From positions 1,046-65,045 of the forward strand of contig JAUSHW010000201.1 of assembly GCA_030648395.1 (NCBI GenBank): a DNA stretch of 64,000 bases, in the 5' to 3' direction. Shown here one piece after another: positions 2,970 through 42,500 of this stretch. The notes under the pieces were generated by a model, which searched no databases, was not told the DNA's origin, and worked only from the letters and a program-made list of their open reading frames with translations. This stretch comes from Nitrospirales bacterium (GTDB taxonomy: Bacteria; Nitrospirota; Nitrospiria; Nitrospirales; NS-4). Both the position numbers and the translations under genes were made by a program. Positions within the stretch are counted from its first letter, which is position 1. The number at the start of each line of letters is the position of its first letter.

Positions 2970-2978
2970 TGTGCTAGT

Positions 2979-3096
2979 CCTCCTTGGTTGTAGCCGGTGC
3001 CGCTTCCGCCGCGCCGGCCGTGTGGTTTATCAATCCTGCATACCTATAACTGAGTCACTCAGCTATTGTCAAGAGAATTCGAAAATAATTCTCCCT
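2979..3096 (-). promoter_or_regulatory. 118-bp promoter/operator/leader element, copy 1
   Basis: Identical to 4782..4899. On the minus strand: TTGACA (3072..3067), 18-nt spacer holding the perfect palindrome CTGAGTGACTCAG (3050..3062), TATAGG (3048..3043), ~55-nt leader, then AAGGAGG RBS. Confidence 0.65.
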
Positions 3097-3222
3097 TGCC
3101 CCCCAAGTGGTCGCACGTTTAATCGCCCGCTGGCCCTCATGTAACCGCGCTATAGCGTATCGCTGTAAGTGTGCTTGTGTAGCTTTGTCCATCGTTCGCC
3201 CCCTCGGTTCGTTGCGTGTCAT
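3055..3222 (-). CDS. hypothetical small protein with MTRNEP N-terminus (55 aa; alternative start 3192)
   Basis: ORF 3055..3249. ATG 3222 sits 5 nt after the upstream TAA. A second in-frame ATG at 3192 follows GAGGGGG. The 3' end runs into promoter copy 1, so coding status is uncertain. Confidence 0.35.
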   Translation of the reverse strand: MTRNEPRGRTMDKATQAHLQRYAIARLHEGQRAIKRATTWGARENYFRILLTIAE

Positions 3223-3227
3223 GCTGG

Positions 3228-3449
3228 TTACCACTGCCCAAACGTACACACTGGGCCGCGATCGCCATCAAGATGCCGCCGCGAGCGGAAGTGTGCGCTG
3301 ATCTGCTCGGATGTAGTTGTGCTCACAGCGCGATACCACCCTTGTCTCGGCGTACCACCGGCGGCAAGTTGCTGGCAACGCGGGCACGTTAGATCGTACC
3401 GCTTAAACACCCTCTTACAATCATCCGTATGTGTCACTTTGGTTTCCAT
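3228..3449 (-). CDS. hypothetical Cys-containing protein (73 aa)
   Basis: ORF 3228..3512 trimmed to METKVTHTDDCKRVFKRYDLTCPRCQQL (ATG 3449, GAGAGGGGGA RBS inside the repeat element). Confidence 0.55.
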   Translation of the reverse strand: METKVTHTDDCKRVFKRYDLTCPRCQQLAAGGTPRQGWYRAVSTTTSEQISAHFRSRRHLDGDRGPVCTFGQW

Positions 3450-3454
3450 GGTCT

Positions 3455-3531
3455 GCGTCCCCCTCTCGTGCGCCCGTGGCCTAGCCCCTTGTACTGCCCC
3501 CTGTACCACCAAGGGGCAGGGAAGAGGTTAG
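3455..3531 (-). repeat. intercistronic cassette, copy 1 (RBS box + alternative hairpins)
   Basis: gcgtccccctctcgtgcgcccgtggcctag + ccccttgtactgccccctgtaccaccaaggggcagggaaga. The two halves recur at 3892..3921 and 4004..4060. It spans from one gene's stop codon to the next gene's RBS. Confidence 0.8.
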
Positions 3532-3890
3532 CGTAGATAGTTCCATCGCTTTCCGTGAAGCGTCTCCGCGTTGACCGTGAGCACGTTGCCGAGATCGGCC
3601 TTTTTCTTCTTGTTGTAGTCCGGTCGCCCGTAGCCTGAGATATTGAACAATTCACCGTTGACGACATCCACAAGGAACGCGCCGGAGTTCCCACAATCGA
3701 GCGCATGAAACTTTCGCCGCTCGCTGGCGTGCCAGAAGTCTGCGGTATGTGTAAAGCCCTGCTCAGCGTGGCTGATTTTCTCGATGGTGTTAAGGCAGTC
3801 AATCACCCTACCAACTGCTTCATTCACTGTGGCCCGCGTGATTTCGATTGTGCTGTCCATGGTGCCCTCCGTTGGTTCGTTGCGTGTCAT
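3528..3890 (-). CDS. hypothetical protein with MTRNEPTEG N-terminus (120 aa; alternative start 3860)
   Basis: ORF track. ATG 3890 lies 5 nt after GAGAGGGGGA. A second in-frame ATG at 3860 follows GGAGGG. Confidence 0.6.
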   Translation of the reverse strand: MTRNEPTEGTMDSTIEITRATVNEAVGRVIDCLNTIEKISHAEQGFTHTADFWHASERRKFHALDCGNSGAFLVDVVNGELFNISGYGRPDYNKKKKADLGNVLTVNAETLHGKRWNYLR

Positions 3891-3891
3891 C

Positions 3892-4060
3892 GCGTCCCCC
3901 TCTCGTTCGCCCGTGGCCTAGTTTGCTAATTACGCGGGTAAAGGGGAAGGCGCTCTCCCCGTGAGCCTCTAGCGCTCTGCCTAGACATATCGCTTCACCC
4001 CGCCGTGGTCTAGCCCCTTGTACTGCCCCCTGTACCACCAAGGGGCAGGGAAGATGTTAG
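3892..4060 (-). repeat. intercistronic cassette, copy 2, split by an 82-bp insert
   Basis: The same two halves as 3455..3531, separated by 3922..4003. The insert is bracketed by cgtggcctag (3912..3921) and cgtggtctag (4004..4013). Confidence 0.75.
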
Positions 4061-4317
4061 ATTTCTGGTCCTTCGATGAAGTCGCCGTTCTGCAATCGAA
4101 CGATATATTCCCCACTGTCAATGTCCTGTTCAAGCGAACAGGCTTTTCCATCTGCAAATTCACGAATAGAGACTTCCCTGCCAAGGTACTGCTTAGCCAA
4201 CCACATAGGCTTGAGTGATACCGTGTGAGGCTCAATTGTGATAGTGTCCACAAAGAACGGTATGCTTCGTGTGCTTCGTCCCATTTTAATTCCCTCCGTT
4301 GGTTCATTGCGGGTCAT
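4057..4317 (-). CDS. hypothetical protein with MTRNEPTEG N-terminus (86 aa; alternative start 4284)
   Basis: ORF 4057..4359. ATG 4317 lies 5 nt after the upstream TAA (TAAccaccATG). In-frame ATG 4284 follows GGAGGG. Confidence 0.55.
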   Translation of the reverse strand: MTRNEPTEGIKMGRSTRSIPFFVDTITIEPHTVSLKPMWLAKQYLGREVSIREFADGKACSLEQDIDSGEYIVRLQNGDFIEGPEI

Positions 4318-4322
4318 GGTGG

Positions 4323-4544
4323 TTAGATGCCGTGGCTGATTGGGAAACATTCGGGACATTCAGGACATTTGCCGCCGCGATCTTCATAGCCTTCATGCTT
4401 CCCGCCGTTGTCGCTATGTTCGTTGACTAAGCCGCCGACATCGTAGCAATGAGCGCAGAGGCCGATATGCTCATTGTCGCCGCGCCCTGTCGAACGAGTG
4501 AGCTTGTTACAATTGCGGCACTTGTAGCAGCCTGAACCAGCCAT
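4323..4544 (-). CDS. hypothetical multi-Cys zinc-binding-like protein (73 aa)
   Basis: ORF 4323..4724 trimmed to MAGSGCYKCRNC...CAHC...CPECPEC. The start is uncertain (alternative 4580). Overlaps the 3' end of 4507..4773. Confidence 0.45.
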   Translation of the reverse strand: MAGSGCYKCRNCNKLTRSTGRGDNEHIGLCAHCYDVGGLVNEHSDNGGKHEGYEDRGGKCPECPECFPISHGI

Positions 4545-4773
4545 TGACGAGTTCGCACTGTCCGCATGGAAGAGGATCATCTGGTGAGTTGAAATGCCAC
4601 GCTGCATGCCCCGCACTTTCAGTATATTCCAAGATAGAAGCCAATCGCTTGATCGTTTCGACTGGCACGGACACTTCAATGGTTTGCGTACCCTTGCCGT
4701 GCTTCTTTTCGGCCTTAAATCCAAATCTGTAGCCGCCGAATCCTACTACTGATCTACACGTTAAATACGTCAT
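4507..4773 (-). CDS. hypothetical protein (88 aa), first gene behind promoter/leader copy 2
   Basis: ORF 4507..4836 trimmed to MTYLTCRSVVGF. ATG 4773 lies downstream of the repeat-borne AAGGAGG. Confidence 0.6.
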   Translation of the reverse strand: MTYLTCRSVVGFGGYRFGFKAEKKHGKGTQTIEVSVPVETIKRLASILEYTESAGHAAWHFNSPDDPLPCGQCELVNGWFRLLQVPQL

Positions 4774-4781
4774 GTTCGCGC

Positions 4782-4899
4782 CCTCCTTGGTTGTAGCCGG
4801 TGCCGCTTCCGCCGCGCCGGCCGTGTGGTTTATCAATCCTGCATACCTATAACTGAGTCACTCAGCTATTGTCAAGAGAATTCGAAAATAATTCTCCCT
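4782..4899 (-). promoter_or_regulatory. 118-bp promoter/operator/leader element, copy 2
   Basis: Identical by eye to 2979..3096 (offset 1803 bp). TTGACA at 4875..4870, palindrome at 4853..4865, TATAGG at 4851..4846. It sits in the divergent gap between the leftward and rightward blocks. Confidence 0.65.
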
Positions 4900-4973
4900 C
4901 CCGGGGATTTTCACGTCCTGATAGAATAAGAGTTGAATCGCACGTAACCGTTTACTTATCGGAGGTGATGAAC

Positions 4974-6593: not shown

Positions 6594-6790
6594 TGGAAAA
6601 CATCAGCGACATCTACACGATCTGCGGCCAGATGGGTTGGCAGTGGCATTGGCAAACGGTACGACGCTGGTCCTATCAACATCTCCCGGATCTCGGTGAT
6701 GAGGAGGGCGACCTCTGGAATCGGTACGTGCTCTACCTCGGGCCGTTCTTTGCGAGCTGGTCCGTCGCAAAGGATCCCGCGAATGGATAA
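6593..6790 (+). CDS. hypothetical Trp-rich protein (65 aa)
   Basis: ORF track. TAATG overlap with the upstream stop. Confidence 0.5.
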   Translation: MENISDIYTICGQMGWQWHWQTVRRWSYQHLPDLGDEEGDLWNRYVLYLGPFFASWSVAKDPANG

Positions 6791-6947
6791 TCTCGGCGGT
6801 ATCTGCTGGAGCCCGGGCGATCCGGAGGAGACCCTGAACACCATGGAGCAAGTGCTGGACTATCTCAATTCCGAGCGGATTGCCGAGGGCAAGCCGGCCT
6901 ACCGCGGGCTGATTCTGGTGGGCTCGATGGAGAACTATACGACATGA
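6783..6947 (+). CDS. hypothetical protein (54 aa)
   Basis: ORF 6696..6947 trimmed to MDNLGGICWSPGD. ATG 6783 overlaps the stop of 6593..6790. Confidence 0.45.
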   Translation: MDNLGGICWSPGDPEETLNTMEQVLDYLNSERIAEGKPAYRGLILVGSMENYTT

Positions 6948-7126
6948 GACGCCCGCGACCCACGGCCCCCGGCCGGCTCACGAACTACGAGATGGCCGGC
7001 CTGCGTGAGAATCCTCCCCCGCGCCGATTCCCGGACGGCGGACGGTGCCGGTGGACGTATATGTGGGCCAGCGTCTGTGACCCGTTTCATCCGCGTAGCC
7101 AGCAGGAGTGGAACGAGCGGCCGTGA
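6944..7126 (+). CDS. hypothetical protein (60 aa)
   Basis: ORF track. ATGA overlap. Confidence 0.4.
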   Translation: MRRPRPTAPGRLTNYEMAGLRENPPPRRFPDGGRCRWTYMWASVCDPFHPRSQQEWNERP

Positions 7127-7148
7127 CGACGAGCTGAAGGAGGACAGG

Positions 7149-7532
7149 ATGGAACTGAATCTCTATGCCACGAGTGCCCGCCCCGAGGAACGCTTTCACT
7201 GGCAGGCGCCGCAGCCGTGGGTTGCGAGCTGCCGCGGCTGGCGCGGGCTCGTCCGCCGCACGACCTGGACGGATCTCCAGCTCCCCGGCCCATGGAACGA
7301 CCCGGCGCGCTTTACCTCCTGGGTGATCGGGTGGTTCCTGCAGATCTACTACGGGAGCGCCAAGTGTGATGGAAGCCGGACGCAGGATCTGCGAAACGGC
7401 ACGCTCGGCGGAAACGACGGCGAGCGGAGGGGGTACGTCATGACGACGACCCCCTCGGAGCTGCTCGCCGTCCGGTGGCGCGGGAAGGGCCTCGAGCGGA
7501 TCCCGCGCTGGGACAACATGGGCGGGGCCTGA
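7149..7532 (+). CDS. hypothetical Trp-rich protein (127 aa)
   Basis: ORF 7005..7532 trimmed to MELNLYATS. GAAGGAGG RBS 6 nt upstream of ATG 7149. Confidence 0.55.
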   Translation: MELNLYATSARPEERFHWQAPQPWVASCRGWRGLVRRTTWTDLQLPGPWNDPARFTSWVIGWFLQIYYGSAKCDGSRTQDLRNGTLGGNDGERRGYVMTTTPSELLAVRWRGKGLERIPRWDNMGGA

Positions 7533-7550: not shown

Positions 7551-7627
7551 TGCGGGGTGGAGCAGCCTGGTAGCTCGTCTGGCCCATACCCAGAAGGTCG
7601 CTGGTTCAAATCCAGCCCCCGCAACCA
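7551..7627 (+). tRNA. tRNA-Met (CAU), initiator-like, CCA encoded
   Basis: Hand-folded cloverleaf. Acceptor UGCGGGG/CCCCGCA, D arm GAGC-AGCCUGGUA-GCUC, anticodon arm UCUGG-CCCAUAC-CCAGA, T arm GCUGG-UUCAAAU-CCAGC. Outline close to bacterial tRNA-fMet. A11:U24 is present and position 33 is C. Confidence 0.85.
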
Positions 7628-7799: not shown

Positions 7800-7874
7800 G
7801 CGAGCGTAACTCAGCGGTAGAGTCGCCGCCTTCCAAGCGGCCGGTCGGGGGTTCAACTCCTCCCGCTCGCTCCA
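7800..7874 (+). tRNA. tRNA-Gly (UCC), CCA encoded
   Basis: Acceptor GCGAGCG/CGCUCGC, D arm ACUC-AGCGGUA-GAGU, anticodon arm GCCGC-CUUCCAA-GCGGC, T arm GGGGG-UUCAACU-CCUCC, discriminator U. Confidence 0.9.
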
Positions 7875-7880
7875 TAACGG

Positions 7881-7955
7881 GCCGGTGTAGCTCAGAGGTA
7901 GAGCGGCTGATTCGTAATCAGCGGGTCGGGGGTTCAACTCCTCCCGCCGGCTCCA
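7881..7955 (+). tRNA. tRNA-Thr (CGU), CCA encoded
   Basis: Acceptor GCCGGUG/CGCCGGC, anticodon arm GCUGA-UUCGUAA-UCAGC. The T arm is identical to that of the adjacent tRNA-Gly. Confidence 0.9.
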
Positions 7956-7982: not shown

Positions 7983-8231
7983 ATGCCTGAGTCACGCGAA
8001 TGCGGCTGCCCGTATCCCGGGCCCCATACCGCGCACTGCCTGGCGCCGCTGGACGGCTGCCGGCCGCGCGGGGGTGATCCCGCGCACGACCATACGTGGA
8101 TTCAAGTACGCGCCGGTGGCTGGCTGATGAAGGCGGTCTGCACGTGCAAGACGATCCGGCGATTCGTCCTCCAGGACTTCAACCGCGAACTCGCGCTCGG
8201 GAAGATGACCCTCCTGCCGAGGCGGGCGTGA
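7983..8231 (+). CDS. hypothetical Cys/His-rich protein (82 aa)
   Basis: ORF track. GGAGGATTAGTAG-ATG RBS. Its stop overlaps the proposed GTG start of terL. Confidence 0.5.
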   Translation: MPESRECGCPYPGPHTAHCLAPLDGCRPRGGDPAHDHTWIQVRAGGWLMKAVCTCKTIRRFVLQDFNRELALGKMTLLPRRA

Positions 8232-9718
8232 CGCCCGATCTGGACCCCGCCCACGGGAACGCCGCCCTCGCGGCCCTCATCGAGAAGCTCCTCGCCCAGC
8301 GGGCCCTTGAATTTTATCAGCCCTATCCGAAACAGAAAGAATTTCATCGCCTCGGGACCACGATCGACGAGCGCCTGCTGATGGCAGCCAATCAAGTGGG
8401 CAAGACCGTCTGTGCCTCGCGCGAGACCGCCTACCACGCCACCGGGAGGTACCCCGACTGGTGGGAGGGCCAGCGCTGGACGCGGCGGACCGTCGGCTGG
8501 ACCGGCTCACCAACCGGGCAGACCTCGCGTGACACGGTGCAGCGCCTGCTCCTCGGACGGACGGAGGATGGCTGGGGGACGGGGGCCATTCCGGAGGCCG
8601 ATATTTTTGACATCAAGCGCGCCAGTGGGAGTGTCCCGAACCAGGTCGAGAGTATTATCGTGAAGTCGGTCTTCGGCGGCGTCTCGACGATTACGCTCAA
8701 GACCTACGACCAGGGCCGCCTCCGGTGGCAGGGGGAGAGCATCGACTACGTCTGGTACGACGAGGAGCCGCCGGAGGATATCTACAGCGAGGGGAAGACG
8801 CGCACGCAGGCCTCCAAGCCACGGGGGACGTTTGTCTACATGACCTTTACGCCCCTGTTGGGCATGACGAGCGTCGTCAACCGGCTGACGAAGGAGAAGC
8901 CCGCGCGCACGCAGGTCATCGGCATGACGATCCACGACGCGCAGCACTACACGGACGAGGAACGCGCGCGGATTATCGCCGGCTATCTGCCGCACGAACG
9001 CGAGGCGCGGGCACTCGGTATTCCCGTGCTCGGCTCCGGCCGGGTGTTCACGATCCCGGAGGAGGAGCTCCGCTGCGAGCCGGTTGCCATTCCGGCGTTC
9101 TGGTATCGAATCAACGGGATGGACTTCGGCTGGGACCATCCGACGGCGAACGCCTGGCTCGCGTGGGACAAGGACAACGACATCATCTACGTCTATGCGG
9201 TTCATCGCCAGCGGGAGACGACCCCGTTGGTGTATGCCGCGGCGATCAAGGCCCGCGGGCCCTGGATCCCGGTGGCGTGGCCGCATGACGGCCTGCAGCA
9301 CGATAAAGGCAGCGGCGTCCAGCTTGCCCAGCAGTACAAGGCCCAGGGTGTGAATATGCTGAAGATGCGCGCGACGCATCCGCCCCTGCCGGGGAAGGAA
9401 GAGGGGAGCGGGGGATTCGGTGTCGAGGCGGGTATCCAGGACATGATCGACCGGATGCAGACCGGCCGCTGGAAGGTGTTCCGGACGTGTGCCGATTGGT
9501 TTGACGAGTATCGCATGTATCATCGGAAGGACGGCCTAATTGTGAAGGAGGGGGATGACCTCATGGCCGCCTCTCGGATCGGGAACATGATGAAACGCTT
9601 CGCGAAAGTAGCCCCCGCACCAGCGCGGCCGGCGGCCCCGCGATTTGTGGTCACGGATCCTTCAATGGGTGTCTTAGGCTCCTTGGCACTGATGATGCTC
9701 GCGGGATTATTTCTATGA
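8228..9718 (+). CDS. terL: terminase large subunit
   Basis: ORF 8096..9718. Start moved to GTG 8228 (GTGA overlap). Walker A AANQVGKT, an acidic WYDEEP stretch that could serve as Walker B, then a nuclease-half pattern (GMDFGWDHP...). Typical length. Confidence 0.9.
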   Translation: MTPDLDPAHGNAALAALIEKLLAQRALEFYQPYPKQKEFHRLGTTIDERLLMAANQVGKTVCASRETAYHATGRYPDWWEGQRWTRRTVGWTGSPTGQTSRDTVQRLLLGRTEDGWGTGAIPEADIFDIKRASGSVPNQVESIIVKSVFGGVSTITLKTYDQGRLRWQGESIDYVWYDEEPPEDIYSEGKTRTQASKPRGTFVYMTFTPLLGMTSVVNRLTKEKPARTQVIGMTIHDAQHYTDEERARIIAGYLPHEREARALGIPVLGSGRVFTIPEEELRCEPVAIPAFWYRINGMDFGWDHPTANAWLAWDKDNDIIYVYAVHRQRETTPLVYAAAIKARGPWIPVAWPHDGLQHDKGSGVQLAQQYKAQGVNMLKMRATHPPLPGKEEGSGGFGVEAGIQDMIDRMQTGRWKVFRTCADWFDEYRMYHRKDGLIVKEGDDLMAASRIGNMMKRFAKVAPAPARPAAPRFVVTDPSMGVLGSLALMMLAGLFL

Positions 9719-33526: not shown

Positions 33527-36500
33527 ATGGGAGACCTCAACCTCAGCGCCTTTGAGACGCCCACAGCCGAACCGGCCGAGGGATTGAATCTCTCTGCCTT
33601 TGAGCCGGCGTCTCCGCCATCCTCGTCCGACGTGCTCCGTGGCGCCACGACGGCCATCAAGCAACTGCCTCAGCTTACCTACGGCCTCGGCGCCGGGTTG
33701 ATGGCGACCAGTCAATCCCTCAAAGAATTTGTCGGGCAAAAATACAGCGGCTACGCGCCGCAAGCTGGCGAAACGACCTTCGATAGCGATCAGCTTGTGA
33801 AGGAGTACCTCGTTGGAAAGTCTCGCGCCTGGGGCGAGGAAATTGCCAAGGAGACAAAAGCGACTGATTCGTTGGTGACGGCGTATGAGCGTGCAAGCGA
33901 GGGGGATTATGGTGCGCTCGTTGATTGGATGCAGTACGGCATTGGATACGGCGGCGTGCAGGTTCTTCAAATGCTCGGCAGCGCAGGCGTCGGCTCCGTG
34001 TTCGGGAAGGCGGCCCTGAAGGAAGTAACAGCCCAGACAGCGGAGCGATTGGTGACGAAAGCCTCCATCGGCCTGGCGGCCGAATCGGGTGGAAAACTCA
34101 CCGGCGAGGCGTTGACGAAAGCTGCGGTTGAACAGGTCGCCTCCAAGATCGGACAATATACAGCCCTCGCCGCCACGGCCACAGGCATGGAGGGCGGTGA
34201 GATTCTCGGTGGAGTGGCCGAGCAATCTGTTGACGAAGGCCGAAGCCTTCGGGGAGACGAACTGGCAAAAGCGTGGGGTGCAACCCTTGCAGCCGGCGCG
34301 CTCGAGTTCGTGGGCGACAAATTCGGCCTTGATCTCGTCACCGGGAAGATAGGGAAGTTTGCTGGAGCGAGGGGGCGGCTCGCGCGCGGAGGCATCCTCG
34401 GGGCCGCCGACGCGGGCGTCGAGAGTGGGACGGAGTTTACTCAGACGCTCGTGGAGGAGGCGGGAAAGGGGCACGATCCATTTACGCTGAAGGCGGTGCG
34501 TGACGCCATCGACGCCGCAGGCCTCGGCGCGATTATGGGAGGCGTCGTCGGCGGGACATCGGGCGCGCTGACCCCCTCCGCCCCGCCGTCTATTACCGGT
34601 ACCGTCCCCCCACTGCCTAAGAGTGGAACTGGAGAAGAGCCGCCGCCCGAGCCTCCTATCATTCCGCCCGACGCGGTTGAGGCTGCGACGGCGTCAATCG
34701 TCCCTCCGCTTCCTGGCATTCTGGATCTGACGCGCGAGCGCGACGACGCGAAGCTCATCGTCCAGGAGATCGCCGAGCGCGTCAATCATCTCGAGTCGAT
34801 TGGTTTGGGCGTTCCGAACTTTCTCCGCGACGAGTTAGAGGCGGCAAACGAGCGCTTCCGCAATCTGAAGGCCGAGCAGGCGACCGTCGTGGAGATTCCG
34901 ACGTCCGTCCTCGCGGCGCCGGATGTCGCGAGCGCCATCACGCAGGCCCAGGCCTTCGTTGACAACCGACCCGCAGCCCCTGCTGGGGAGAACCTTCCAT
35001 TCAGCCGCAGTGAAACCTTTCAATCAGCCTTGGAGTCCCACATTGGCTCCGAGGCCTACACGGAGGCCACCCATGCCGGAGACCAAGCCGCCCTTATTGC
35101 CGCCGTCCGCAACGCCACCGGCTTTGACGACGCCGGGGGGCTCCCCACCCTGCACGGCCTCCCCCTCCGCGCCGTTGCGCCCGAGAGGTTGCCTGACACC
35201 GCTGATACGCCGGGGCAGCTCACACGAGGTCAGTACGACGCCGCCAATCTCTTCCTCGGACTCTTTGGTAAGCGCGCCGTAGTCTTCGAGGACCACCCAG
35301 CGATGGCGGGGTTTGTCGCGCCTGAGGGGGGCGATCAGTCGATCGTCTTCCTCGGCTCGCGGAGCGAGAGCCATCCGCTGGCCGTTGTCGCCCACGAGCT
35401 CGGCCATCTGCTCGAGGGCACGGAGGCCTATCGCGCGTTCCAGGCGGTGCTCCTCGAGAACCTGGACCCGGAAGCCAAACTGGCCGCGCGCGAGCGCCAC
35501 ACGACCGCCAAGACGGACCTGGAACTCTTCAACGAAATCTCCGCGGACGTGAAGGGCGACGCCATGACCGATCCCGCGTTCATGACGAAGCTCGTGGCGC
35601 GGATGCGGGAGAAACTCGGGGACGAGGAGACGAAAGTTCAGGCGCGTACGTTCCTGGACGTCATCCGCGACGTTATTGCGAAGTTTACCGAGCGCATTGG
35701 GATCCGTATGTCCGACGACTACCTGCCCTATATCACGAACCTGGAGAAGATTCACGACGCGCTCGCCATAGCCGTCGCGGAGGCGTACCTGAAGGGCACG
35801 ACGCCCACCGCTGAGAAGGGGAAGCTGAAACTCTCAGAGCGCCAGACCGGTGAGGGCGCGCGCGAAGTCGTCCATCCGGAGGCGGTGGAGAAATTCAGCG
35901 GGCTGGCGTCCGCGCAACGCGATAAACCAGAAGCCGCTATGCTCACGGTACAGATGACCCACGGTGGGGGCGTCCTCAATCCGGTCGTGGAGCACGTCGG
36001 GGATCTGACCCACCGGATGTCGCACCACGCACGGCACGGCACCGCGTACCGCGCCGAGGTGGCGTCGAAGATCGAGCGCGCCCTCGCGGCCCTCACGCAC
36101 CCCTACGGCTTCGAGAAGGAGCACGCGGAGAACCTTCGGAACAACGCCCGCGGATGGACGAAGGAAGGGAAACCCATCTCCACGGCGGATCTCCGCAAGG
36201 CCGTCCACGCCGCCATGGACGAGTACGCCGCGGAGCACCGGAAACTCTCCGTCTACAACCTCCCGCAGTGGCTTGCGCGCGAGGCGGCGGTGGCTGTGGG
36301 CGAGCGGCGCTGGGACGACGCGATCCGACGGCTGAAGGAACTCCACGAGATCGTGAAGTCTGCGGACTACGACCGGCAGGCGCTGGCGGTGAATAGGGAC
36401 AAAAAGGGGACAATTCTCACCTTCGAGGAAATTGGCGAGGTCCTGACGGACGCGGAGAAGCTCGCCCAGCAGAAAGTTTCGTCAGAAAAAGAGACCATTT

Positions 36501-39500
36501 TATCTGACAACGACCTTACCCCCAACGGCCGGCAGGACGATGGTAAGGGCGGTGGATTTGACCTCTACACCACCACTCGCGAACTGCCGGTCTTGACGAA
36601 GAACGACCTCTACCCGCACGCCGCGATCCCGAAGGGCGGGACCGTCAGCCGGCAGACGCTCGAGGCGAGCGGCTATCGGCTAGCCGACGATTTACTCAAT
36701 TCATTGAGTAAGATTCAACTCGCCCCTCGCAAACACCCGGAGCACAAGCGCACCTCCGAGGGGAAGTACGTCGGCGCCCCGCCGGCCGTCGTGAGCCCGG
36801 CGAAGCTCACGAAGCTGCGTGAGATTCTGAAGGGGCTCGCGAAGGAGGGAAAGGCCGGGCGCTTCTGGCATGAGAAGTCGAGCCACGCCATCCTCGATCT
36901 CGCCGAGGGCAACCGGAACCTCGCTGAGAAGATTGTCGGCCTGATTGCGATCTACAGCCCGCGGCAGGGGATCCTCGGGAATATGACCTCCGCCCTGACC
37001 GCCTACTACCAGTGGGCGAACGGCAAGCCGATCACCACGCCCGGACGGAGTGGCCTCGAGCCCGCGTACCGCGCCGAGGCGTGGATGCACGAGAGCGCCA
37101 CCGAGGAGACGATCACTGGGATCAAGCGCTCCAACTTCTACAAGAACCTCATGCGCGTCATCAACCCCGCGGCGCTCGGCACCGAGGCCCAGGGCGTGAC
37201 GGTGGATATGTGGATCGCCCGTGCGATGGGGTACTTCAAGACCACCGTCGGGAAGGCCCAGTATCTCTTCACCGAGCGGGAGATCAAGCACCTCGCGTCG
37301 ACCCTCGGGTGGGAACCGCAGCAGGCCCAGGCCGCCGTCTGGGTGGCCGTCCGGAGTCGGATACAGGCCCCGGTCGAGCGGGACGGGGTGATGACGACCC
37401 TCTATGAGGCGACCCGGAAGGACGCGGTCACTCGCGGATGGCTCGAGAGGGTCACGAACTACTCCAAATCCGGCCAGGCCTATACGCACCACAAGGCGGT
37501 CGACGCAGAGCGCGGGCGCGCCTTTGAACGCCTCCTCCTCCAGCGGGCGTTGAAGCTCGATTCGGTCGAGATCGACAGTCTGGACTTCTCCGACGCGCTC
37601 AAGCAGCGCACCGCGCAGATCTCCTGGGAGGCCACCCCCGGGAAGACGTCCCTCATCCTCCCCGGCATCCACGGCGCGACGCTCGGCCAGCAGGCGGAGT
37701 ATCTCGCCGCGGTCGACGCGGCCTTGCGGGGGGATTATGGACAGGATCTCATTGCCGAGAAGTTGAACCTCGCCGGCGCGAACACCATCTTCGGCCCCGG
37801 GGCCTGGCAGGGGAACATCACGGTCGGCGCCCAGACGCGGACGGCCATCGGACTCCAGACGGACGCCGACGGTCTTCAGCGCGTCTCGGACGACGCCCGT
37901 GCCCTGATCAACCTCTATGCCGATATCCGCGGCTATACGATGAGCCAGGAGGGGGTCTATTGGGCCTATCCCTTCTACGAGGAGACGAAAGCCAAGGCGA
38001 ACGGCGTCCGGCTCCTCTTCGGCCGCGCGCTCGATACGACAGAAATGGGTAGCCTCTATCGGGCCATTATGGACGTCGCCGGGCATGACGAGTGGGCCCC
38101 GGCGTACACGGAGGACGGCGCGTTTATTTTGAATTTCAAGACCGAGGATCATCTCGCGTTTCAGAAGACGATTAAAGAGGCGGTCGGCCGACTGCCGGAC
38201 GAACTGTCGGCCACGATGAAGACCTTCCGCTCGGACGGCGACGCGCGGATGAATGATTGGAAGGAGTCCCCCCATGGCGAGAGTTATCGAGAGCGGATCG
38301 GTGCCGAAGGAGGACCCGATGTTCTCCAGTGGAGTGCGGATCTACGGCAAGCCGTCGTTGGCGTCAACGAGCACTTCAGCGAGCGATACGACTGGGGGAA
38401 TCCCGGAGAAGCCTACCCCGAAGCCGCTGAAGTAGAGACCCAGCAGACGGACGTCAGCCCGAGTACCGGGCACGATATCCGCTTCGCCCCGCGGAACTTC
38501 CCCGTCGCCTACCAGCGCATGGCAGACGAGTACGACGCGGCACCCGTCTTGGATAAGGCGGCCATCCCTGCGTGGAACGCCCTGCGAGATGATACCGCGC
38601 GGCGCTACAAGGAGATCCTTCTCAAGGTCCACGTCGAACGGGTCACCGGGCAGCCTTACACGGACGCAACCAGTATGATCGCCGACATTGCGAAGGGCTC
38701 GTTCAAAGTCACCACCGATTACAGTGAGCACCCGGTCTGGACCGTCGAGGAAAATGTGCAGTTCCGCGTGGTGCACGATTACCTCGGGCACTTTAAGACC
38801 GGGTATGACTTTAGTCTCTATGGCGAGCAGCGCGCCTACGCCGCCCACGCTGAGTTGCTGACAGACCCGCTGGCGAAGCAGGCCCTCAAGGTCGAGGTCT
38901 ACGGGCAGGCCGCGGCAGCCGTGTCACACGACGGCGTCTTCCAGGTCCAGAAGATTTTCCTCCCGAAGCCGGACGTTCGTAATTTTGACGCCGAGTGGGC
39001 CGCGCAGAGTGGCGGCCAGAAAATGGCCGAAGAACGCGGTCTCAACATGACCGGCAACGAGTACCTGACGCGTATTGAACGTGCTCGGGCGACTGGGATA
39101 GGGCAAGGCCGGCTGCCTAGAGACATCCGCTTCGCCCCCCGCGACGCGACGCCGCCCTACGGTCTGAAGACGCTCCCCAAGGGCGCGAAGGTGCCGCGGG
39201 TGCAGTGGGATAAGGATGAACTGCGCGAGAACGAGGACGCCCTGCGGGACGATTACGCCCAGACCGGCCCGAACGAACTCGAGCACACGATCTATCCGAC
39301 CGTCTACCGTGCTTGGGTGCCAATGGATGACGTGCCGAGGGCCCGCATCGCCGACCGCGCGCAGGATCGCGCCAAGGGTGGATACGACTGGAGTGAATAT
39401 AAAAAGACCGGGGTCTTCCCGCCGGTGACCATTCAGCTCCACCCGAACGGCGTCGCAACCTCCCTCGACGACGGCAACCATCGCGTGCGCTATTGGCGCG

Positions 39501-42500
39501 AGCACAAGTTTACGCACGTCCCGGCCTGGATTGTCGACTTCCGTCCGGACAGCCCTGCCCGCCCTGGGACGCTCGCGGAGTACAAGAAGCAGCACCCGGA
39601 ACTCAAGTTCGCGCCCCGTAAGCAGCCTGTCTTCTACTCCGCGCTGCAGAAGGTTCTGAGCGAGCGGATGCCCGTCTCCGCCTCGGGTGAGCAGGTGAAG
39701 GGGATCCTGAACGCCCCGGGCGTGAAGCAGGACGAGATTAAATGGTCCGGAGTCCTGGACTACCTCGAGGCGCGGAAGCTGAAGACCATCTCGCGCGACT
39801 CCCTCCTTGCCTGGCTCAAGAAGAACGAGGTCAAGATCGTCGAGGTCATGAAGTCCGGCGAGAGCGCGGAGGATCTGCCGTCGCTGCAAGAGTTTAAACG
39901 CGACTATTACGAATCAGAGATCGTGCCCGAGGATCCGTCGTATATCGAAGAAGAAACAACGCGGCTCCGGGATATGCGGCGCCAGGATCTGGAGATCGAG
40001 GGCGGCTATACGACGGAAGAAATTGAGGACGAGGTTTCCAAGATCGAGTACGAGCAGGACGACTACGCTAGCGAGCAAGAAACCCGGCACCGGACGTACC
40101 CCTTCCGCATTCTCGGACGCGAGGTGGAGTTTAAAGTGAGTGTCTACGACGATGTCGTCCCTATGACAAGCGGGAGGAAAGCAAAATTCCTCGGCGATCT
40201 CAAGAAGGATGGGACGCTCGAAGAGGACGGCTACGGGCCCGCCTTCAACCGGTTCTCTGAGGCCAACGAGGCAGCCTACGAATACTTCGTCGGGAAGGCC
40301 AAGGCACAGGCCGAAGAGAGCGCCCCCAAGTACCCGGGTTCCACGCTCAAGGGGCCGAATACAGATTATCGGGAGTTGCTGCTGACGTTTGAGCCGGCAT
40401 TAGCAAAGACCATCGCCGAGCGCGCAAAGAAACTTCACAATACACTGATGGGCATCCACAATCAGATTGCGGCCGCGAAGGATCCAGGAACGACGAAGAA
40501 ACCCTCTGTTGAAGTGCTGAACCTTCAGCGGGATGCCGATCGTATCCGTCGTGAAATTCAACTTGCGCGCGAGAAAGAGCCGTCAAAATTTACCTCCTCC
40601 CACTGGGACGAGGAGAACATCCTCGCGCACATTCGCTACGACACGCGGACGGACGCGGCCGGGAAGCGGACGCTGTTTATCGAGGAGATCCAGAGCGATT
40701 GGCATCAGAAGGGGCGGGAGGAGGGGTACACAAAGGACACGACAGGCTGGACAGCAAAATCCCTTTCCGAACCAGAGGCGGGATTTACATCATGGGAAAT
40801 TCACGACGCCGCCGGCAACTATATTACGGGAATCGTTGGCGGCAGCGAAGAATCCGCTATTCGCAAAGCCGCAGAAGGCGTCCCCCAGGCCCCCTTCTCC
40901 AAGTCCTGGCACGAGCTCGCGCTCAAGCGGATGCTCCGCCTCGCGGCGGACGAGGGCTACGACCAGCTCGCGTGGACGACCGGGCGGCAGCAGAATGAGC
41001 GGTATCGGCTGTCGAAGTATGTTTCGAGGGTCGTCTATGATAACGGCATCCTCAACGCGAGTGATTTAAGTGGGCGAAAGGTCTTCGCGGAAGAGGTAAG
41101 CGAGAATGATCTTGCCAAGCATATTGGGAAAGAGGCCGCAGAGAAACTTATTGCGATGACTCCCGACGAAGACGGTCTCAGGATTCTCGAAGGCCTCGAC
41201 CTCGAGATCGGCGGCTCGGGCATGGTGGGCTTCTACGACCAGATGCTCCCGCGGTTCCTCGACAAGTACCTCAAACGGTGGGGCGTGACAGTCGGGACGG
41301 CGGTGTTTGATTTTGTGCCAAGTGGCCAGAAAAAGCTCTATAGTACGCCATCACAAAATGCGGCAGGGGTTGCCCACGCCATCCCCATCACAACGGAGAT
41401 GAAGGCCTCCGTCCAGGGCGAGTCCCAGCCGCAGTTCGCGCCGCGCTCGAAGCAGACCCAGACGCCCGAGTTTAAGAAGTGGTTCGGGGACAGCAAGGTG
41501 GTCGACACCCAGGGCTCGCCTTTAGTGGTGTATCACGGGACGACGAACGCGGCCGCTATTGCCCAATTCGAGTTAAGGGGCGAGGCCGCGGCATTTCACT
41601 TTACAGCAGATCCTGCGTACGCGTCTAAATATGCCAAAGGAATTACGAGCGCCGCAAAAGCGGGTAATGAAAGATCTGCCGCGGTGCTCCCTGTTTATTT
41701 GAAAATTGAAAATCCTTTCTTTACATGGAAAGGGACGGACACTTATTTTTTAAGTCCAGAAAAGATCAAGGAACTCGCTAAACATGGTTTTGACGGCGTA
41801 ATTCAAAGCGTATTGCTCGCTCCTCCTAACCCTGTAAACCACGCGAGGGCTGTAGAAACAGCAAGTGAACTTGTCGTCTTCTCCCCCACCCAAATCAAAT
41901 CCGCCACCGGCAACCGTGGCACGTTTGACTCAGAGAATCCCGATATCCGGTTTGCGCCGAGGAAGGCAACGCCGCCGTACGGCCTACGCGAGGATCAGCT
42001 CCCTCATGGTGCAAAGGTGCCGAACGTGGATTGGAATCAGGAAGACCTCGTAGCAGGTATAGGGGAGTTGAGGAGACAGACGCCGAAGACACTTGCAAAG
42101 GGATACGAAACTATTTATTCCGGGATCTACGGTGTCAGAAAAGGTTTTACACCAATCGTCTCTCGCGCGTTTGTTCCTGTCAATCGCGTGCCAAAAGAAC
42201 ATATTTCCTATGAAGACGAGTATATGGATGAGTACGATTGGCAGTCTCTAAAAGACGCGGCGACGCTCCCGCCGGCAACCGTCGTTCTGTTTAATAATGG
42301 CCCGAAATTACTCGAAGACGGTAATCACCGCGTCCGTCATTGGCGTGAAGAAGGGATGACCCATATCCCCGCGTGGATCGTCGACTTCCGCAAAGGCGCC
42401 AAGCCGGTCTTCGCCCCCCGCACCGCGCCCACCTATACCGTCCCCGAGCCGACACGGACCGACAAAGTTCGGCGCGTGCTCCAGGACAAGAATATCGACA

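Follow-up and report, generated by a model that had tools for sequence, protein, structure and literature searches.

Three small genes in an acquired phage island (genes c, d and ORF f) begin with copies of one short cassette, which we interpret, with moderate confidence, as a portable translation-initiation and gene-junction module that was copied onto these mutually unrelated genes by local recombination or gene conversion. The cassette looks like a reusable gene-start junction rather than a functional peptide tag, and like a fairly ordinary feature. In the window (the whole 64-kb stretch of DNA analysed here), its core, ATGACNCGCAAYGAACC, occurs three times against 0.06 expected, still three times with two mismatches allowed, and none of 100 shuffled sequences gave three matches. 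All three copies lie on the minus strand within a span of 1.1 kb, and each is followed by a G-rich Shine-Dalgarno (SD) sequence and then by a second, in-frame ATG 10-11 codons on. The cassette is 26-37 nt long and reads ATGACNCGCAAYGAACC and then AACGGAGGG or GAGGGGG, so that an additional ATG upstream is joined, through an A/C-rich stretch free of structure, to a strong ribosome-binding site.

The pairs of upstream and second in-frame start codons (ATG1 and ATG2, Table 1) proposed in an earlier sequence-only reading were all confirmed on the minus strand, and the stretch between them is free of stop codons in every copy. It reads ACC CGC AAT GAA CCA ACG GAG GGA ATT AAA in copy 1, ACA CGC AAC GAA CCA ACG GAG GGC ACC in copy 2, and ACA CGC AAC GAA CCG AGG GGG CGA ACG in copy 3. 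Other elements of that description held in part: the TAAcca(s)c prefix ascribed to all three genes is present in copies 1 and 3, but copy 2 follows ...GAGAGGGGGACGCG, which is a different element, a repeated SD module; GGAGGG is replaced by GAGGGGG in copy 3; and the shared peptide, although MTRNEP is found in all three copies, continues in copy 3 with RGRT and not TEGT. Nor are the three genes consecutive, as had been stated, since the cassette-free gene e (3449-3228) sits between d and f.

Table 1. Positions of the island, its genes and its repeated elements within the window.
Feature	Position	Strand	Description
Promoter module copy A	4773-4899	minus	97% identical repeat of copy B
Island, genes a-f	3097-4772	minus	Between the two promoter copies; 54.5% GC vs 63% elsewhere
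Gene b	4323-4544	minus	Cys-rich, zinc-ribbon-like, 73 aa; phrog_3633; TAA 5 nt before ATG1 of copy 1
Cassette copy 1, gene c	4282-4325	minus	TAA stop of gene b (4325-4323), CCACC, ATG1 at 4317, ATG2 at 4284
Gene c	4057-4317	minus	75 aa (start at 4284) or 86 aa (start at 4317)
Hairpin repeat copy 1	4003-4060	minus	Just past the stop of gene c; fold -26.9 kcal/mol
SD repeat copy 1	3892-3921	minus	CTAGGCCACGGGCGAACGAGAGGGGGACGC; SD for ATG1 of cassette copy 2
Cassette copy 2, gene d	3858-3890	minus	ATG1 at 3890, ATG2 at 3860; 30-nt SD repeat upstream, no stop codon
Gene d	3528-3890	minus	110 aa (start at 3860) or 120 aa (start at 3890)
Hairpin repeat copy 2	3474-3531	minus	Just past the stop of gene d; fold -32.5 kcal/mol
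SD repeat copy 2	3455-3484	minus	SD for gene e
Gene e	3228-3449	minus	Cys-rich, 73 aa, no cassette; TAA 5 nt before ATG1 of copy 3
Cassette copy 3, ORF f	3190-3230	minus	TAA stop of gene e (3230-3228), CCAGC, ATG1 at 3222, ATG2 at 3192
ORF f	3055-3222	minus	45 aa (start at 3192) or 55 aa (start at 3222)
Promoter module copy B	2970-3096	minus	Drives gene g (DUF7417, 2969-2775)

The island that carries the cassette, about 1.8 kb in size, is, to judge by its sequence, a horizontally and recently acquired insertion in a phage early operon. Two related phages with complete genomes, L132 and L135, lack genes a-f, and the 127-nt promoter module that brackets them here is single-copy in alignments of the relatives L132, L135 and L008. 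Besides the cassette, the island contains a 58-nt hairpin repeat and a 30-nt SD repeat, the two copies of each being 97% identical; taken over all of them, the junction repeats within the island are 92-100% identical.

Within the cassette, the conserved G-rich block does provide the second ATG with an SD, as had been proposed, and a strong one, with duplex energies of -10.0, -10.0 and -10.9 kcal/mol in copies 1, 2 and 3, comparable to those of genes a, e, g and h (-11 to -12). In each copy, 4-7 nt separate the end of this block from ATG2. ATG1 is without an SD in copies 1 and 3 (-1.7 and -3.5 kcal/mol, respectively), where it lies 5 nt past the preceding TAA stop, and it has a strong SD of its own in copy 2 (-11.1 kcal/mol, 4-5 nt upstream). 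Use of the upstream ATG is mechanistically possible, as it could draw on this separate SD in copy 2 and on the nearby stop codons in copies 1 and 3. The cassette RNA folds less well than shuffled sequence (z = +1.2 to +1.3; of 200 shuffles, 182-188 were as stable or more so) and has no match in Rfam, and an RNA structure or riboswitch-like element was rejected on these grounds. No promoter-like site was found inside the cassette, and leaderless transcripts starting from ATG1 were rejected because, on reading the sequence, no -10-like element was seen at an appropriate spacing.

Comparison with homologues identifies ATG2 as the family-conserved start. All 21 gene d homologues and both clear gene c homologues start at or near ATG2, and MTRNEP is carried by none of either group (0/21 and 0/2). 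The gene c homologues, P0025 (76% identity, 75 aa) and P0026 (55%, 74 aa), begin with MG(F/Y)ST, which corresponds to ATG2, and the DNA upstream of the closest one reads TAAcAACCAAGGGGGGcagcATGGGA, that is, a stop, an SD and an ATG without the ATGACCCGCAAT part. Gene d is a member of a conserved family of small proteins whose C-terminal motif reads GELYNIKGYGRPDYNKKxKADLGNV...KRWNYLR, and PGAP annotated it in its 110-aa form (MDO8547839.1). For ORF f, no credible homologue was found among 1.84 billion representatives, and the only two matches were taken as spurious, as both fell within internally repetitive proteins. Since its last 14 codons and stop come from promoter repeat B, ORF f is probably a truncated remnant.

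The cassette-bearing proteins are unrelated to one another and hydrophilic, and their translations show no hydrophobic segment. The genes directly upstream of two of the copies, b and e, have no significant family assignment and are mutually unrelated. A segmental duplication of the pairs b + c and e + f was ruled out, given that b is unrelated to e and c to d.

The cassette is absent from the related phages L132-L136, L008 and L089, although relatives have reiterated junctions of their own; in L089, ACCAAGGGGGGyAGCATG is repeated before two adjacent genes. Searches for the exact core gave seven single matches in IMG/VR, and a peptide-degenerate pattern gave none in IMG/VR, 20 single matches in JGI metagenomes and 12 in GTDB genomes. 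These outside matches look random, having neither the TAACC prefix nor a second in-frame ATG, and in many of them the reading frame is broken by stop codons. Matches in L001 and L007 (MTRNEPLEEG) were set aside as short broken ORFs. At the nucleotide level, the locus showed no similarity to INPHARED phages, and searches of IMG/VR with the 5'UTR and the hairpin DNA returned one random coding match and no match, respectively. The Logan contig that represents this phage (L137) is interrupted at the promoter repeat and supplied no independent copy of the island. With three copies in one genome and none elsewhere, the conservation of the cassette may reflect recent copying and not function.

As a junction module, the cassette would combine four parts: an ATG at a site where ribosomes are already present (5 nt past a stop in copies 1 and 3, 4-5 nt past a separate strong SD in copy 2); five A/C-rich codons devoid of secondary structure; a strong G-rich SD; and, in frame with the first ATG, the start codon that is the gene's own and is conserved in its family. 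Newly arriving 30S subunits would bind the SD and start at ATG2 to give the conserved protein, and ribosomes that terminate upstream, or that are bound to the upstream SD of copy 2, may start in frame at ATG1. Because ATG1 is in frame with the gene, any such use would add a harmless extension of 10-11 residues and would not cause out-of-frame interference; the N-terminal extension is best read as tolerated and not selected. The module would have spread by recombination. Three points stand against this model. First, differences confined to synonymous third positions would not be expected of an element that acts purely as RNA or DNA. Second, the L089 homologue couples without need of ATG1. Third, as noted above, recent copying may account for the conservation.

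The alternative that we take most seriously, although we consider it unlikely, is that the cassette is a neutral recombination scar, with nothing beyond ordinary SD function, in which ATGACNCGCAAYGAACC is left over from the 5' end of a gene that began MTRNEP and was displaced. Incoming genes with their own SD and ATG would have recombined at the A/C-rich ...AACCAA-GG(A/G)GG SD microhomology, and the hybrid junction would then have spread by gene conversion. In agreement with such a route, the 3' half of the cassette resembles the TIR motif of other genes, namely AACCAAGGAGG, present in the two promoter modules, and ACCAAGGGGG(G), present in L089 as well as L124, and what the closest gene c homologue lacks is the 5' half only. 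The recent insertion of the island and the near-identity of its junction repeats fit recent events as well, and gene i begins with a similar junction, AAACCAGCATGAC, at which the ATG is the real start. However, a scar does not readily explain why the frame and open reading to ATG2 are kept in all three copies, why the substitutions are synonymous only, or why ATG1 is always accessible to ribosomes, after a stop or after an SD. The first of these objections counts for less than it seems, as copies 2 and 3 share their frame by descent and only one independent frame-keeping event is left.

The sequence-only reading had proposed that each gene could yield two isoforms and that the peptide itself may be under selection; on this view, MTRNEP(TEG) would be a shared functional tag under purifying selection, serving in targeting, regulation or turnover. 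We regard this as quite improbable. Its factual basis was reproduced: copies 1 and 2 differ at three positions over 27 nt, all of them third-codon and synonymous, and the substitutions within MTRNEP (codons 2-6) are likewise third-position and synonymous in 3/3 cases. The SD for ATG1 of gene d is as good as that for its ATG2, ATG1 of c and f is positioned for termination-reinitiation, and d-family genes of L088, L124 and L128 have an in-frame ATG within 12 codons upstream, for which the base rate in the window is 4/35. But the upstream regions of those other d-family genes code for unrelated peptides, the cassette peptide is found on no gene c or d homologue, and no protein-coding context with the cassette appears in IMG/VR, JGI metagenomes or GTDB genomes. 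Copy 3 alters three of the next four residues, three of its codons differing non-synonymously from the others (TEG to RGR), and it belongs to ORF f, the probable remnant. The synonymous-only pattern rests on three substitutions, with a post hoc P of about 0.015, and fails in copy 3; the purely non-coding repeats of the same island are equally conserved (97%), and the ATGACCCGCAAT part is missing from the closest c homologue. Selection on the peptide is therefore unsupported. A fuller version, in which ATG1 is a genuine start and a portable dual-start module places a common MTRNEP tag, under purifying selection, on three unrelated early proteins, with tagged and untagged isoforms made in a set ratio through the internal SD, appears slightly more doubtful still; its logic would be analogous to that of the T4 capsid-targeting sequence, with an internal SD added.

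Finally, it is very improbable that the cassette is a site for a trans-acting regulator (a T4 RegA/RegB-type repressor or endoribonuclease, or a small RNA) co-regulating translation initiation of the three genes: although the conserved sequence covers the SD and start region of three genes that share an early operon, is single-stranded and accessible, and follows directly on the small Cys-rich proteins b and e in two copies, the analysis identified no candidate regulator, b and e share neither kinship nor a significant family assignment, there are three sites only, the SD half has diverged in copy 3, and relatives contain nothing comparable.

Among known systems, the junction module invites comparison with the start-associated sequences (SAS) of Cluster K mycobacteriophages, a 13-bp consensus (GGGATAGGAGCCC, with up to two deviations) present in 11-19 copies per genome in the non-structural arm and conserved across subclusters (Pope et al., 2011; PMC3203893). 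SAS lie 3-7 bp upstream of the starts of unrelated non-structural genes, contain an SD core, share one orientation and have a proposed role in translation initiation (PMC3203893). The cassette is, like SAS, a short, asymmetric, single-orientation repeat with an SD core before the starts of unrelated genes, and an upstream stop is sometimes found inside SAS. Spacing, SD core and orientation correspond, the SD part of the cassette lying 4-7 nt before ATG2 and all copies being on the minus strand, but the cassette does not match the 13-bp consensus. It also differs in having three copies within 1.1 kb of one genome, in being absent from relatives, in its greater length (26-37 nt) and in its upstream in-frame ATG.

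Termination-reinitiation coupling was reportedly described by Adhin and van Duin in 1990, and synthetic bicistronic designs are said to have been introduced by Mutalik et al. in 2013. In termination-reinitiation coupling, the downstream gene depends for its translation on that of the upstream gene. In a bicistronic design, a short leader frame carries the SD of the main start, initiation is independent of the sequence of the downstream gene, and the stop of the leader overlaps the main ATG. The leader codons of the cassette similarly contain the SD for the main start, but its leader is in frame and free of stops, so that a start at ATG1 would extend the protein. The geometry of termination-reinitiation, TAA-N5-ATG1, is found in copies 1 and 3, whereas copy 2 has its own SD and no preceding stop. 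Should use of ATG1 be demonstrated, the cassette would represent a naturally occurring, in-frame equivalent of engineered bicistronic leaders, and might then be useful in practice for initiation that does not depend on context.

The capsid targeting sequence of T4 internal proteins is a short conserved N-terminal peptide on unrelated small proteins encoded in a hypervariable locus (PMC3012670). Tags of this type stay on homologues at the locus across related phages, their carriers are packaged, and the prohead protease cleaves them off. MTRNEP is, in the same way, a short N-terminal peptide common to otherwise unrelated small phage proteins, but c and d homologues and related genomes lack it, conservation in copy 3 covers six residues only, a strong SD and a family-conserved start follow the peptide, and its carriers here are early-operon proteins. 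Holin genes with dual starts, such as lambda S107/S105, have two in-frame starts 1-3 codons apart, both of them used, and encode a membrane protein. Two in-frame starts could yield two products from each cassette-bearing gene as well; however, here they are 10-11 codons apart and lie on hydrophilic proteins that have no relationship to one another.

Short repeats linked to gene starts in variable, ORFan-rich phage regions are known as a class but little understood, and the cassette is one more example of them. The island illustrates how unrelated small genes can be assembled through a few reusable junctions (promoter, hairpin, SD and coupling start). For annotation, the cassette accounts for ambiguous start-codon calls and pinpoints the family-conserved start.

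A further parallel is provided by the PeSL (promoter-early stem-loop) cassettes of T4-type phages, reiterated regulatory junctions in ORFan-rich hyperplastic regions (Arbiol et al., 2010; PMC2839356). Each reaches from the stop of one gene to the SD and start codon of the following one, and recombination between them brings about modular shuffling (PMC2839356). The MTRNEP cassette has neither promoter nor stem-loop and represents only the translational part of such a junction. The 127-nt promoter repeat fits PeSL well: its sigma-70-like promoter consists of TTGACA, 18 nt with the palindrome CTGAGTGACTCAG between the hexamers, and TATAGG, followed by a conserved 5'UTR and an end made up of the SD and ATG, and, as with PeSL, the a-f island that it brackets is an indel between this phage and its sisters. 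L132 has one promoter copy only, and this drives the DUF7417 orthologue directly. N4-like hairpin promoters, suspected from a 3851-aa ORF in the window, were rejected, as this ORF is a polyvalent protein (LPD38, ART-PolyVal) and not a virion RNA polymerase.

The cassette is a real but local repeat. Reading of the minus strand confirmed the coordinates of all six ATGs and showed the upstream (ATG1) and second (ATG2) start codons to be in frame, at distances of 11, 10 and 10 codons. Across the 64 kb, the core ATGACNCGCAAYGAACC has exactly three matches with two mismatches permitted, where 0.06 are expected by chance and no shuffle gave three, and a repeat finder independently returned a 37-nt family spanning all three sites. 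Other details of the sequence-only reading required amendment. The TAACCAsC prefix is present at copies 4317 and 3222 and absent at copy 3890, which is preceded by another repeated element with the 3' end GAGAGGGGGACGCG; the GGAGGG ascribed to every copy is GAGGGGG in copy 3222; the common peptide does not extend past MTRNEP, which is followed by RGRT in copy 3222 and by TEGT in the others; and the genes, described as consecutive, are interrupted by gene e, which carries no cassette and sits between gene d and ORF f. In IMG/VR, JGI metagenomes and GTDB genomes, neither the exact core nor a peptide-degenerate version produced more than scattered single matches, none with the prefix, a second ATG or a similar context.

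Features of the cassette locus, numbered in operon order, and of other sites
Order	Feature	Position	Strand	Remark
1	Promoter module A, 127 nt	4899-4773	minus	direct repeat with module B, 97% identity; the pair brackets the 1.8-kb low-GC island
2	Gene a	4773-4507	minus	
3	Gene b	4544-4323	minus	
4	Cassette 1 and gene c	ATG1 4317, ATG2 4284	minus	
5	58-nt hairpin repeat	4060-4003	minus	-27 kcal/mol, no U tract
5	30-nt SD repeat		minus	
6	Cassette 2 and gene d	ATG1 3890, ATG2 3860	minus	
7	58-nt hairpin repeat	3531-3474	minus	-32 kcal/mol, no U tract
7	30-nt SD repeat		minus	
8	Gene e	3449-3228	minus	
9	Cassette 3 and ORF f	ATG1 3222, ATG2 3192	minus	
10	Promoter module B, 127 nt	3096-2970	minus	
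11	Gene g		minus	DUF7417
	CTAG(G/A)CCACGG(G)CG box	4013-4000, 3921-3908, 3484-3471	minus	three occurrences
	tRNA-Met(CAT)	7551-7627	plus	between putative small and large terminase genes
	tRNA-Gly(TCC)	7800-7874	plus	as above
	tRNA-Thr(CGT)	7881-7955	plus	as above
	3851-aa polyvalent protein	33527-45082	plus	DUF7178, ART-PolyVal (ADP-ribosyltransferase) and LPD38 domains
	d-family upstream ATG, contig L088	759-797		
	d-family upstream ATG, contig L124	2923-2961		
	d-family upstream ATG, contig L128	about 2986-3003		

The proposal that the conserved block serves as a Shine-Dalgarno (SD) sequence for ATG2 was borne out by strong anti-SD duplexes at all three sites (-10.0, -10.0 and -10.9 kcal/mol, spacing 4-7 nt); the other operon starts (a, e, g and h) reach -11 to -12 kcal/mol. 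At genes c and f, ATG1 has no SD (-1.7 and -3.5 kcal/mol) and lies 5 nt past the TAA of the preceding gene, and at gene d it has a strong SD of its own (-11.1 kcal/mol) within the SD repeat, which serves gene e as well, so that ATG1 is invariably placed where ribosomes arrive, past a stop or past an SD. The cassette RNA showed no structure, was less stable than its shuffles (z = +1.2 to +1.3; 182-188 of 200 shuffles gave an equal or better fold) and matched no Rfam family, and its 5' half is approximately 80% A+C. Taken together, SD strength, ATG1 placement, lack of structure and the A+C-rich 5' half make the cassette look like an accessible translation-initiation region.

The homologues of genes c and d show ATG2 to be the conserved start. 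Gene d belongs to a family of proteins of approximately 100 amino acids (21 homologues, 19 invariant alignment columns), none of whose 21 homologues carries the MTRNEP extension; their N-termini align at ATG2 or just past it, a G-rich SD lies immediately 5' of the aligned start at each of nine d-family loci inspected as DNA, and the PGAP annotation of gene d is the short form. Both clear homologues of gene c (75 and 74 amino acids) begin MG(F/Y)ST, the ATG2 position. Upstream of the closer one (76% identity, contig L089) the DNA reads TAAcAACCAAGGGGGGcagcATGGGA, a stop, SD and ATG lacking the ATGACCCGCAAT part, and 12 codons ahead of the second there is a stop in frame. The extension is thus confined to this island. 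The cassette-carrying proteins show no relationship to one another, nor do the proteins encoded upstream of the cassettes. ORF f is probably a truncated remnant, since its final 14 codons and stop derive from promoter module B and no credible homologue was found among 1.84 billion representative proteins.

A divergent promoter region near 4900 marks the start of the leftward operon to which the locus belongs, and the genes of this operon are small. The divergently transcribed neighbour gene led to the genomes of two related phages, both apparently complete and both from Hainich groundwater: L132/L133, of 65.6 kb, and L135/L136, of 59 kb. These relatives hold orthologues of genes g, i, j and l and none of genes a-f. 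Their promoter module is single-copy and runs TTGACA, CTGAGTnACTCnG, TATAGG or TATAAA, a 5'UTR beginning GCCGGCGCGGCGGAAGCGGCAC, and SD; in L132 it directly drives the orthologue of gene g. The 127-nt module of the window, which is partly conserved in L008, comprises TTGACA-N18-TATAGG, whose two hexamers flank the perfect palindrome CTGAGTGACTCAG, together with a conserved 5'UTR and the SD AACCAAGGAGG. Because genes a-f are absent from the relatives, their segment has a GC content of 54.5% (63% in the remaining genome) and the promoter is single-copy in the relatives, the cassettes lie in an insertion of 1.8 kb that is lineage-specific and compositionally foreign and is flanked by the two copies of the promoter module; it could be excised if these copies recombined.

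The insertion holds further near-identical junction repeats (97% identity). The 58-nt hairpin lies directly past the stops of c and d and is followed by a CTAG box; at the c-d junction two boxes stand about 80 nt apart, as if an insertion or deletion had occurred there. A similar hairpin, then GGGCTAG, is found in the unrelated contig L089, together with CTAGGCCGTGGCG. The relatives have reiterated junctions of their own (repeats of 38 and 40 nt located where genes meet), and L089 has ACCAAGGGGGGyAGCATG ahead of two adjacent genes. The cassette 3' half, GAACCAACGGAGGG, resembles the A/C-rich, G-run SD context ahead of several other genes, including AACCAAGGAGG in both promoter modules and ACCAAGGGGG, present in L089 and ahead of the L124 d-family gene.

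The cassette may act as a portable junction for initiation and coupling. Ribosomes initiating de novo at the SD and ATG2 would yield the conserved protein, and those ending at the upstream TAA, or bound to the upstream SD of copy 2, may begin at ATG1; since ATG1 is in frame, the product would be slightly extended and still functional. Termination-reinitiation coupling and synthetic bicistronic leaders resemble this proposed working, although the leader of the cassette is in frame. Within the island, the cassette would have spread by recombination or gene conversion at common SD-type microhomology, as would the promoter, hairpin and SD modules. Less likely rival readings are a functionless recombination scar, a functional N-terminal tag and a regulator binding site.

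Selection on the peptide itself, suggested in the sequence-only reading, is unsupported. Over 27 nt, copies 1 and 2 do show three differences, each of them synonymous and in a third codon position; the last (GGA/GGC) stands at the edge of similarity. Across codons 2-6 of the three copies, 3/3 substitutions are synonymous; because a random single change has a 24% chance of being synonymous, P is about 0.015, a post hoc value with n=3. Copy 3 has non-synonymous changes in three of the four codons after MTRNEP, yet keeps a G-rich SD. Non-coding repeats of the island are conserved equally or better, so the high identity needs no peptide-level selection, and since copies 2 and 3 have a common block reaching through ATGGACA, just one frame relationship is independent. 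An in-frame ATG within 15 codons upstream of an SD-led ATG occurs at 4/35 other window sites. Such ATGs are commoner in the d family, where several genes from unrelated phage contigs have them 2-12 codons ahead of the start led by the SD, with peptides unrelated to MTRNEP (ATGATGATGATGAACAACAAAACCAAGGGGGAAATCATG in L124, MATEPKQGGART-M in L088). Translation from ATG1 is plausible, above all for gene d; a dual-isoform system or functional N-terminal tag, which the synonymous differences might favor, is unlikely given homologues without the extension and the diverged copy 3.

We classify the cassette with the known reiterated start-associated or junction sequences of phage accessory regions. Closest among described kinds are the Cluster K mycobacteriophage start-associated sequences (PMC3203893), which follow the same logic of position and orientation but differ in sequence, copy number and conservation and lack an upstream ATG. 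The surroundings are best modelled on the PeSL cassettes of T4-type phages (PMC2839356), a description that suits the 127-nt promoter repeat, whereas the MTRNEP cassette has neither promoter nor stem-loop. Analogy with the T4 capsid-targeting sequence (PMC3012670) fails because the homologues lack the MTRNEP peptide.

The window is a phage genome, encoding a large terminase (8096-9718; best deposited-phage match Rhizobium phage RHph_N2, 54% identity), a portal, a primase/VapE protein, three tRNAs and the polyvalent protein, which is probably an ejected multi-domain protein; three of its proteins are identical to PGAP proteins MDO8547838-40. Genes a and b share 38 nt in different frames, an overlap flanked on either side by CxxC motifs, and could be a single zinc-ribbon gene with a frameshift, whether programmed or due to a sequencing error; of the 219 positions in the phrog_3633 profile, gene b matches 19-61 only. 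In its acceptor and T arms the tRNA-Met is very similar to bacterial initiator tRNA, yet it has a U1:A72 pair. Cassette codons ACG, GGA and ATG match the anticodons of the three tRNAs, probably by coincidence. Adjacent paralogous genes at 1304-717 and 713-132 (minus) consist mostly of 21-nt tandem repeats encoding Ala-rich heptads (AAYGKAG, AAYDEAR), and the same operon in L132 has a gene with 16 comparable units (6627-7271). The large terminase of L132 (12759-15098) has 779 amino acids, compared with 485-540 in L135 (12985-14442) and the window, which suggests an insertion of approximately 290 amino acids, possibly an intein.
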